Source of the DNA: Escherichia coli
Lineage (GTDB): Bacteria > Pseudomonadota > Gammaproteobacteria > Enterobacterales > Enterobacteriaceae
Reading direction: 5' to 3' (one strand)
DNA length: 2,037 nt
Assembly: GCF_003334405.1 (NCBI RefSeq)
Contig: NZ_QOWM01000040.1
Part shown: positions 1 to 2,037 of the stretch, piece after piece
Position numbering within the stretch: the first letter of the stretch is position 1
Layout of the letters: each line of letters opens with the position of its first letter
The notes under the pieces: generated by a model
What the model saw: only the letters and a program-made list of their open reading frames with translations
Told to the model about the DNA's origin: nothing
Databases searched by the model: none
Made by a program: the position numbers and the translations under genes

Positions 1-846
1 AACCAGATGGACCCGGTGTACACGCCGGCGCGAAAAATCCACCTGTACCACTGCGACCATCGCGGCCTGCCGCTGGCGCTCATCAGCACGGAAGGGGCAA
101 CAGCGTGGTGCGCAGAATATGATGAATGGGGCAACCTGCTGAATGAAGAGAACCCGCATCAGCTGCAGCAGCTTATCCGGCTGCCGGGGCAGCAGTATGA
201 TGAGGAGTCCGGCCTGTATTACAACCGCCACCGCTATTATGACCCGCTGCAGGGGCGATATATCACTCAGGATCCGATTGGACTGAAGGGGGGATGGAAC
301 CTGTATGGATATCAATTGAATCCGATATCAGACATCGACCCCCTGGGTTTATCTATGTGGGAGGATGCAAAATCGGGGGCATGTACTAATGGTCTTTGCG
401 GCACACTATCCGCTATGATAGGTCCAGATAAATTTGATTCTATAGATAGCACCGCATATGGCGCCTTAAATAAAATAAATAGCCAATCTATTTGCGAAGA
501 TAAAGAGTTCGCTGGTTTAATATGTAAGGATAATAGTGGCAGATATTTCTCAACAGCACCTAACCGAGGAGAAAGAAAAGGATCATATCCATTCAATAGC
601 CCTTGCCCTAATGGTACTGAGAAAGTATCAGCTTATCATACTCATGGTGCAGATAGTCATGGAGAATATTGGGACGAAATATTTTCAGGTAAAGATGAGA
701 AAATAGTTAAAAGTAAAGATAACAATATCAAGTCATTTTATTTAGGTACGCCCAGTGGTAATTTTAAAGCAATAGATAACCACGGGAAGGAAATAACAAA
801 CAGAAAAGGATTACCTAATGTCTGCAGAGTTCATGGTAATATGTAA
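1..846 (+). CDS. rhsB: Rhs family protein, C-terminal portion (5'-partial): end of conserved Rhs core plus variable C-terminal toxin domain (CT) of unassigned fold
   Basis: Open frame from nt 1 (the gene begins upstream) to TAA at 844-846. The translation carries the Rhs core-end signature [42 protein letters not shown]. Composition drops right after the second DPxGL, from about 58% GC to about 33% GC (hand counts of sampled 60-nt stretches), as expected for a conserved core fused to a variable toxin tip. The symbol is a recollection that the 127-aa downstream ORF followed by an H-repeat matches the K-12 RhsB element; it may instead be an orthologous Rhs locus. Confidence 0.85.
271..351 (+). 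other. Rhs core/CT demarcation motif: DPIGL (271-285), 17-residue spacer, DPLGL (337-351); probable autoproteolysis and core/tip boundary
   Basis: Read directly from the translation: D89-P-I-G-L93 and D111-P-L-G-L115. In Rhs and YD-repeat proteins the DPxGL-(~18 aa)-DPxGL motif marks the end of the conserved core and lies next to the site where the C-terminal tip is released. Confidence 0.8.
806..810 (+). promoter_or_regulatory. Shine-Dalgarno (AAGGA) for the immunity gene, 7-nt spacer to ATG 818
   Basis: The sequence aaaAGGAttacctaATG is seen directly. It lies inside the 3' end of the rhs coding sequence, consistent with translational coupling. Confidence 0.55.
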
Positions 847-1201
847 AAAAATATTGTTTAGGAACTGTGTCATTGTATCTTTGTTTGTTTTTACATACAA
901 CACATGGGCGCAGTGTAATAATAATATTAAAATAATGCGCAAGTATGAAAGTGAAGGTAAATATACCGTTAGAAATTTGGTTAAAAATAAAGCTATAGCA
1001 TTGGAATTAGCTGAGATATATGTTAAGAATCGTTATGGGCAGGATGCCGCAGAAGAAGAAAAACCATACGAAATCACTGAGTTAACAACAAGTTGGGTTG
1101 TTGAAGGTACCATTCACTCAGACCAAATTGCTGGTGGGGTTTTTATTATAGAAATAGGCAAAAATGATGGGAGAATTCTGAATTTTGGCCACGGAAAATA
1201 A
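818..1201 (+). CDS. yhhH: Putative cognate Rhs immunity protein (127 aa) encoded immediately downstream of and overlapping the rhs CT
   Basis: ORF 818-1201 with an SD 7 nt upstream. It overlaps the rhs stop by 29 nt in a different frame and is AT-rich like the toxin tip, the typical arrangement of Rhs CT/immunity pairs. Length and position match my recollection of K-12 yhhH (127 aa, between rhsB and yhhI). The N-terminus [33 protein letters not shown] is hydrophobic and signal-peptide-like. In-frame alternative starts exist at 833 and 935, but neither has a comparable SD. Confidence 0.75.
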
Positions 1202-1292
1202 GTATGTAAGGATAATCAAACATCGTGTGCGCTGATGGCAGAGTAGGTGGAGGACTCCAGACAGTCAAACGATAGAAAAAGATAGCCTTTAT

Positions 1293-1297
1293 GGAGG
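1293..1297 (+). promoter_or_regulatory. Shine-Dalgarno (GGAGG) for the yibA-like ORF, 8-nt spacer to ATG 1306
   Basis: The sequence atGGAGGttcctgcaATG is seen directly. This supports ATG 1306 (MSNTYQKRK...) as the start rather than the upstream ATG 1291 used in the ORF track. Confidence 0.6.
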
Positions 1298-1305
1298 TTC
1301 CTGCA

Positions 1306-1652
1306 ATGTCAAATACATACCAGAAAAGAAAGGCAAGTAAAGAGTATGGTTTATATAATAAATGTAAGAAACTAAATGATGATGAATTATTTCGCTTACT
1401 TGATGATCGCAATTCCTTGAAAAGGATTTCATCTGCCAGAGTATTACAGTTAAGAGGGGGGCAAGACGCTGTTAGATTGGCAATTGAATTCTGCACTGAC
1501 AAAAATTATATCCGTAGAGATATCGGAGCATTTATACTCGGGCAAATATAAATTTGCAAAAAATGCGAAGATAATGTTTTTAATATTTTGAACAATATGG
1601 CATTGAATGATAAGAGTGCTTGCGTTCGAGCTACGGCAATCGAGTCAACGGC
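1306..1652 (+). pseudogene. Orphan HEAT-repeat immunity gene remnant (YibA-like), interrupted by an in-frame TAA at 1549-1551 and 3'-truncated by the H-repeat insertion
   Basis: Translation from 1306 is MSNTYQKRKASKEYGLYNKCKKLNDDELFRLLDDRNSLKRISSARVLQLRGGQDAVRLAIEFCTDKNYIRRDIGAFILGQI, then a stop, then the same frame continues ICKKCEDNVFNILNNMALNDKSACVRATAIESTA... The second half contains a canonical HEAT/PBS-lyase repeat signature (D-x-x-x-C-V-R-A-T-A-I-E). The N-terminus matches what I recall of E. coli YibA, the HEAT-repeat protein encoded just downstream of rhsA. About 115 codons are present, against roughly 280 for a full-length YibA-type protein. The frame runs on into non-homologous sequence until TAA 1687-1689. 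Confidence 0.7.
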
Positions 1653-1770
1653 CAGGGAAAGATCATCAAAAGTTCACTTTTTGCACTAAATAATTCGCAT
1701 TTTATGTTTAAAAATTGAGATATTCCTTATTACCTGAAGCTGTTTTTTATTGCTTATACATGATCAAATA

Positions 1771-1790
1771 CTCCTTACCTAATTAAGGAG
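1771..1790 (+). promoter_or_regulatory. Perfect 7-bp inverted repeat (CTCCTTA-cctaat-TAAGGAG) able to form an RNA hairpin sequestering the transposase Shine-Dalgarno sequence
   Basis: Seen directly: 1771-1777 ctcctta is the exact reverse complement of 1784-1790 taaggag, with a 6-nt loop. The 3' arm contains the SD AAGGAG (1785-1790), which lies 6 nt upstream of ATG 1797. Confidence 0.5.
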
Positions 1791-1796
1791 AACAAA

Positions 1797-2037
1797 ATGG
1801 AACTTAAAAAATTGATGGAACATATTTCTATTATCCCCGATTACAGACAAACCTGGAAAGTGGAACATAAATTATCGGATATTCTACTGTTGACTATTTG
1901 TGCCGTTATTTCTGGTGCAGAAGGTTGGGAAGATATAGAGGATTTTGGGGAAACACATCTCGATTTTTTGAAGCAATATGGTGATTTTGAAAATGGTATT
2001 CCTGTTCACGATACCATTGCCAGAGTTGTATCCTGTA
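1797..2037 (+). CDS. yhhI: ISAs1-family (H-repeat-associated) transposase, N-terminal 80 codons (3'-partial, runs off the window)
   Basis: AAGGAG SD at 1785-1790, ATG at 1797, and an open frame to the window end. The translation is [80 protein letters not shown], the conserved N-terminal region of H-repeat-associated proteins (YhhI, YdcC and YbfD in E. coli). The symbol is chosen from the RhsB-like context, since the paralogues are near-identical at this end. Confidence 0.85.

Follow-up and report, generated by a model that had tools for sequence, protein, structure and literature searches.

Known Rhs junctions and the layout of the window

Composite Rhs elements of Escherichia coli K-12 were reportedly described by C. 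W. Hill's group. According to the C-terminal displacement model for the toxin tips of Rhs proteins (Jackson et al. 2009, PMC2935791), part of the Rhs core is repeated ahead of a displaced tip. A second known arrangement is that of the orphan toxin-CT/immunity modules in CDI and Rhs loci, where an immunity gene with an intact ribosome-binding site follows a toxin fragment without signals for translation initiation (Poole et al. 2011, PMC3150448). The locus analysed here fits the accepted view of Rhs loci, in which toxin/immunity cassettes are stacked by successive exchange and orphan immunity genes remain.

The whole 2,037-nt stretch of DNA that was analysed (the window) is 100% identical to chromosomal rhsB-yhhH-HEAT pseudogene-yhhI regions in many E. 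coli genomes, K-12 lines included. In a K-12 record this gene order adjoins yhhJ/rbbA. On the basis of its sequence we identify the window as the 3' end of the K-12-type RhsB element, comprising the rhsB tip, yhhH, a truncated yibA-like pseudogene (yibA'), and ISEc1 with yhhI. The features are as follows.

7 to 846, + strand: 3' end of rhsB (ORF translation; annotated as rhsB in the 100% identical genomes)
About 337 to 846, + strand: within rhsB, the end of the GC-rich Rhs core, with DPLGL encoded at about 337 to 351, and then the AT-rich C-terminal toxin tip at about 352 to 846 (ORF translation)
521 to 534, + strand: first copy of the 14-mer TATGTAAGGATAAT, inside the rhsB toxin tip, codons ICKDN
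818 to 1201, + strand: yhhH, an Imm-NTF2-2 (PF15631) immunity gene (ORF list, annotation, and Pfam PF15631 on all homologues)
1202 to 1305: spacer of 104 nt between yhhH and the yibA remnant, a mosaic of segments a to d
1202 to 1208, + strand: segment a, the 7 nt past the yhhH stop that still belong to the rhsB-tip/yhhH module (Salmonella homology stops at 1208)
1203 to 1216, + strand: second copy of the 14-mer, spanning the 1208|1209 boundary, with its first bases in the yhhH module and the rest in the filler
1209 to 1253, + strand: segment b, a 45-nt filler that holds a GC-rich core, seen only directly behind yhhH (2,977 E. coli genomes)
1254 to 1285, + strand: segment c, the last 32 nt of a rhsA-type Ntox34 toxin ORF, codons SRQSNDRKR plus TAG, now noncoding (aligns to K-12 rhsA, 4646 to 4677 of locus L005)
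1286 to 1305, + strand: segment d, the native intergenic sequence of rhsA-yibA (20 nt), which holds the Shine-Dalgarno motif GGAGG at 1293 to 1297 (rhsA-yibA comparison and direct sequence reading)
1306 to 1652, + strand: remnant of a yibA-like HEAT-repeat immunity gene with its ATG at 1306 (annotated pseudogene; yibA homology cut at 1652)
1653 to 2037, + strand: ISEc1 (H-repeat), left end, including the first part of the transposase gene yhhI, whose ATG is at 1797 (annotation)

Upstream of the spacer is an Rhs core with PxxxxDPxGL at its end, and the spacer itself is part of the AT-rich tip/immunity region; past the end of the core, the GC content of the window falls from about 58% to about 35%. 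A PF14220/DUF4329 domain is precomputed for an ORF at another locus (L014, 2715 to 3029) whose last 57 residues are those of the window. The start of yhhH, whose K-12 paralogue is ybbC, overlaps the end of rhsB by 29 nt. The yibA-like remnant matches positions 1 to 81 of the 285 in the NCBIfam profile PRK09687 and has been inactivated twice, by an in-frame TAA at 1549 to 1551 and by the homology cut at 1652. Position 1549 differs from the intact yibA allele found in locus L007.

In several respects the window is like the junctions left by Rhs tip exchange and C-terminal displacement. After the GC-rich core come an AT-rich tip and an immunity gene, homology with other Rhs loci breaks off abruptly, an older immunity gene (yibA) lies downstream of a newer toxin/immunity pair, and an H-repeat, ISEc1, truncates the array. 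Unlike the displacement product described by Jackson et al., however, the window has no partial core repeat before the old tip, it keeps 32 nt of the old toxin ORF rather than a largely intact orphan tip shunted downstream, and there is a 45-nt filler at its seam. Because just 32 nt of the old toxin survive, its replacement or deletion was near complete. Clean displaced-tip junctions, unlike the window, are found elsewhere: an orphan Rhs core fragment stands behind an NTF2-type immunity gene in Salmonella (L009, 2695 to 2880, with core sequence from about 2703) and behind K-12 ybbC (L008, 3407 to 4116, the fragment starting from LALMDADG).

The window is also like the orphan modules of Poole et al. 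in that an immunity gene with its ribosome-binding site intact follows a toxin fragment without translation initiation signals. It differs from them in that the toxin fragment consists of 9 codons and a stop with no demarcating motif, and in that the immunity gene, too, is no longer intact but a pseudogene, with a stop at 1549 and a cut at 1652. The junction is thus of an already known kind, an ordinary spacer in the well-known K-12 RhsB element. What is gained is a set of base-level coordinates for one K-12 RhsB junction and the finding that the yibA-like remnant came with the last 32 nt of an Ntox34 gene. It is a tidy case of near-complete tip replacement without a core repeat, and it opens no new question.

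Sequence on the two sides of the seam

The spacer is divided by sharp breakpoints. On the left, a Salmonella enterica locus (L009), which has a YhhH homologue of 70% identity behind a homologous toxin tip, aligns to positions 1 to 1208 of the window at 76% (blastn), and this homology stops at 1208. On the right, homology to the rhsA-yibA region begins exactly at 1254, and positions 1254 to 1652 match the 3' end of K-12 rhsA plus yibA at 97.2% without a gap. The first-pass annotation had proposed that a GC-rich island in this spacer might be a scar of the recombination that joined two modules, for example a fragment of a GC-richer sequence that once preceded the yibA-like gene. The island does contain a recombination seam: at 1253|1254 the sequence changes to that of rhsA-yibA. 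The proposed source of the GC-rich sequence is not borne out. The piece that preceded yibA, 1254 to 1285, is 37.5% GC and is the tail of an AT-rich Ntox34 ORF, and the GC-rich core lies on the yhhH side of the seam and never occurs before yibA without yhhH. Similarity to Rhs-associated sequence, the absence of which had been put forward as the mark of a mere spacer, was found for the 3' half of the spacer and was absent from its GC-rich 5' half.

Several observations identify segment c as part of a toxin gene. The remnant SRQSNDRKR* reads in the frame of the RhsA tail SRQSNDKKR*, its homology to the 3' end of the ORF includes the stop codon, and it lies directly upstream of the cognate immunity gene. 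A Salmonella Ntox34 protein (P0119, 79% identical) ends in ...SRLSNDRKR. The RhsA tip is a Pfam Ntox34 domain (PF15606), and the model spans residues 51 to 125 of the 130-residue tip and therefore overlaps the remnant. The frame match to the RhsA tail, the reach of the Ntox34 model, and the conserved Salmonella tail together indicate that 1254 to 1285 is genuine toxin coding sequence. The same in-frame conserved tail and model coverage rule out the notion that this stretch was a leader into which rhsA later read. At the K-12 rhsA locus, as in segment d, 20 nt separate the end of rhsA from the yibA ATG.

The most probable reading, to which we assign a probability of roughly 0.8, is that 1253|1254 is a seam of illegitimate recombination between the tail of the yhhH cassette and the Ntox34 remnant with the yibA leader, and that the spacer is most likely inert. 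We infer the following history. The Ntox34-yibA pair would have been present first. An rhsB-tip/yhhH cassette, together with its tail, would then have taken the place of the Ntox34 toxin ORF except for its final 32 nt, so that yibA remained downstream of yhhH as an orphan. This replacement would have happened once, probably at the rhsA locus. ISEc1 would later have truncated a copy at 1652, and the K-12 RhsB arrangement of the window would have resulted. Intermediates, for example yhhH with a longer piece of the Ntox34 gene behind it, were not found, so it is the coding-tail argument that carries the proposed order of events.

The distribution of the junction is consistent with a single origin. 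Among 5,426 complete E. coli genomes, positions 1196 to 1256 occur in 2,977 and in every case immediately follow yhhH or its allele annotated as "NTF2 fold immunity protein"; yhhH is full length in 2,976 genomes and the complete 116-nt junction is found in 2,975. The sole structural variant among the matches sampled is an IS3 insertion at about 1244. The yibA'|ISEc1 junction, that is, the K-12-type truncation at 1652, occurs in 1,811 genomes. In the remaining genomes, about 40%, the junction is at the rhsA locus before a long yibA, which is followed by the usual Rhs fragment and yibG (for example, loci L002, L006, and L007). This distribution and the two contexts indicate that the junction arose once and that it predates the ISEc1 truncation seen in the window.

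Composition of the spacer and possible sources of the filler

The sequence and the figures reported for the GC-rich island, 56% GC at 1221 to 1270, are correct, and so is the description of its surroundings as about 33% GC: the part of yhhH past the rhsB overlap (847 to 1201) is 33.5% GC and positions 1306 to 1700 are 34.7% GC. As a distinct feature, the island does not hold up, because its peak is within what chance produces. A second 50-nt window at 56% GC falls in 1608 to 1667, within the yibA-like remnant, and a 50-nt window of at least 56% GC arose in 29% of 2,000 mononucleotide shuffles of the AT-rich part of the window (430 to 2037). The full interval originally delimited, 1202 to 1290, is just 44% GC. 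By segment, the filler (1209 to 1253) is 51% GC, its part from 1224 to 1253 is 63% GC, and the Ntox34 remnant has the low value given above. Positions 1224 to 1253 are thus the real GC-rich core and the source of the GC peak. The island is in all probability a compositional accident that spans the seam at 1253|1254 and no unit of its own.

It had also been stated that no frame in the island is open for more than about 25 codons. On the + strand this is right if the yibA frame, open from 1291, is set aside. It is wrong for the - strand, on which a TTG-started ORF of 118 codons (1146 to 1502) runs antisense across the end of yhhH, the spacer, and the start of yibA'. This ORF has no NCBIfam match and is probably spurious.

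The filler has been seen in one context. A blastn search of 5,426 E. coli genomes with 1196 to 1256, at E values up to 1, returned no copy of the filler in any other context. Among 100,044 species representatives an exact 24-mer of the filler was found in two contigs only, both 99% identical to the window, and a plasmid collection gave four matches, each covering the full spacer at 97 to 100%. No filler with a changed base just outside either end was found in two metagenome scans with exact patterns, which are blind to copies diverged by more than a few percent. The two 24-mer contigs (L016 and L017) are assigned to two MAGs, one of Lachnospiraceae and the other of Flavobacterium psychrophilum, yet are nearly identical to the E. 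coli RhsB region, and one of the plasmid matches, with 100% identity to the 104-nt spacer, is a 2,294-bp "Klebsiella pneumoniae plasmid" (H173, NZ_CP054971.1). These MAG contigs and the small Klebsiella plasmid are likely mis-binning or assembly artefacts. Positions 1202 to 1253 are most economically read as the untranslated tail of the incoming rhsB-tip/yhhH cassette; the filler within it could be the native flank of that cassette or could have been inserted when the junction formed.

An alternative source for the GC-rich core is the Rhs core itself. If the old tip had been displaced behind a partial core repeat, in keeping with the published model (PMC2935791), and a later deletion had taken out most of that repeat together with the Ntox34 tip, then 1224 to 1253 could be an eroded stump of that repeat. 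Orphan Rhs core fragments do begin 5 to 10 nt past the immunity-gene stop in two related contexts, behind K-12 ybbC (L008) and behind the Salmonella yhhH-like gene (L009). The 10-mer GCGCTGATGG at 1229 to 1238 is identical to the first bases of the core fragment downstream of ybbC, and 1218 to 1235 match the core at 98 to 116 of the window in 16 of 18 aligned columns. Suggestive as the 10-mer and the 16/18 match are, local alignment scores of 1209 to 1253 against 11 distinct Rhs core 3' regions were within the range of dinucleotide shuffles (p = 0.15 to 0.32 overall and 0.09 to 0.85 per target), and the first 15 nt of the filler are AT-rich, unlike the core. We therefore reject the eroded core scrap as a source of the filler, and displacement followed by deletion is an unlikely account of the junction.

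The 14-mer TATGTAAGGATAAT, present in the rhsB toxin tip and again at the start of the spacer, is unlikely to be repeated by chance (p of about 0.001 to 0.016) and is not explained by the simple history proposed above. Only 0.1% of shuffled spacers had a 14-mer in common with the remainder of the window, and any 14-mer repeat appeared in 1.6% of shuffled windows. Both copies have sharp edges, with no similarity beyond 14 nt at either. The lack of extended similarity also rules out a diverged copy of the toxin region following the 14-mer in the spacer. The spacer copy is retained in loci whose upstream toxin does not carry the copy at 521 to 534. The repeat could be a small templated patch from the formation of the junction, or it could be chance.

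One may also ask whether the whole filler was pieced together from short templated copies, through template switching as the junction formed, with the 14-mer from 521 to 534 as the visible patch. The exact, sharply edged repeat would be expected from such a process. So would the structure of its left part, where TATGTA is native post-stop sequence held in common with Salmonella and the next bases, AGGATAAT, extend the match to the toxin-internal copy. For the rest of the filler, however, neither the window nor the neighbouring loci offer a significant source, and a single 14-mer is compatible with chance across a genome-wide scan. In addition, loci with a different upstream toxin keep the spacer copy without the copy at 521 to 534, so any templating must predate those loci. 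We consider a templated patchwork a remote prospect. Template switching, if it did occur, would be a mechanism unlike the homologous-recombination/circular-intermediate model. The broader proposition, that the filler and the 14-mer record a microhomology-mediated, template-switching replacement of the Rhs tip or else that the spacer holds a weak stationary-phase promoter that keeps the orphan yibA expressed, is very unlikely.

Transcription signals and related toxin loci

The only functional-looking motif in the spacer is GGAGG-N8-ATG of yibA, which was inherited from rhsA-yibA. Consensus scans of 1000 to 1500 agreed with the initial impression that no convincing promoter or terminator can be read here. 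There was no sigma-70-type promoter site with at least 9 of 12 matches to the -35 and -10 elements at a spacing of 16 to 18 nt, and no intrinsic terminator in the form of a GC-rich hairpin with a U-tract, in this interval. The predicted RNA fold of 1195 to 1310 was no more stable than that of shuffled sequences on either strand (z = +0.46 and +0.27). Across the whole window, the best Rfam matches had E values of at least 2 and were far below their gathering scores, and no + strand match overlapped 1202 to 1305. A single weak - strand match at 1097 to 1215 (14.7 bits versus a gathering score of 86) clips the first 14 bases of the spacer. Since there is no terminator between yhhH and yibA', transcription of rhsB-yhhH would be expected to read through into yibA'.

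If the spacer had a function, it could be that of a leader or promoter from which the orphan yibA is still expressed now that its toxin is lost, and the GC-rich patch would be part of the signal. The Shine-Dalgarno motif and ATG of yibA are intact, and the junction is 97 to 100% identical in 2,975 genomes, about 40% of which have a long yibA behind it. That high identity, however, would be expected from a recent single origin. The most divergent allele has 3 changes in the 104 nt of the spacer and 11 in the 347 nt of yibA, and this equal rate gives no sign of special constraint on the spacer. Orphan immunity genes are expressed in CDI and Rhs loci (PMC3150448), and genomic SELEX gave a weak in vitro RpoS-holoenzyme peak, with an intensity of 3.3, at map position 3,621,930, between yhhH and yhhI (PMC5493296). 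There may thus be some promoter activity near the spacer. By an approximate conversion of MG1655 coordinates, the SELEX peak presumably corresponds to about 1330 to 1460 of the window, which is inside yibA' and outside the island. Against a promoter in the spacer there is also the empty promoter scan, and yibA at the rhsA locus works with a leader of only 20 nt. We judge a dedicated leader or promoter highly improbable, and the spacer itself most likely does nothing. Within yibA', near the mapped SELEX peak, there is a perfect TATAAT at 1354 to 1359.

Some related loci carry other combinations of toxin and immunity genes. In two of them (L011, 2682 to 3047, and L007, 1874 to 2158) a pentapeptide-repeat ORF lies upstream of a divergent yhhH allele, and its last 30 or so residues are homologous to the tail of the RhsB toxin. 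The ORF resembles a toxin gene, either chimeric or a remnant, that has been joined to the end overlapping yhhH. In another locus (L015, 1 to 3384) the gene directly upstream of a yhhH allele encodes an Rhs protein that is full length but has an unrelated tip at its C terminus (…ETLKCIKPLHSMGG…). This yhhH allele differs from that of the window only in its first 80 or so nucleotides, which implies that recombination took place within the 5' end of the gene, and the locus possibly has a mismatched toxin/immunity pair.
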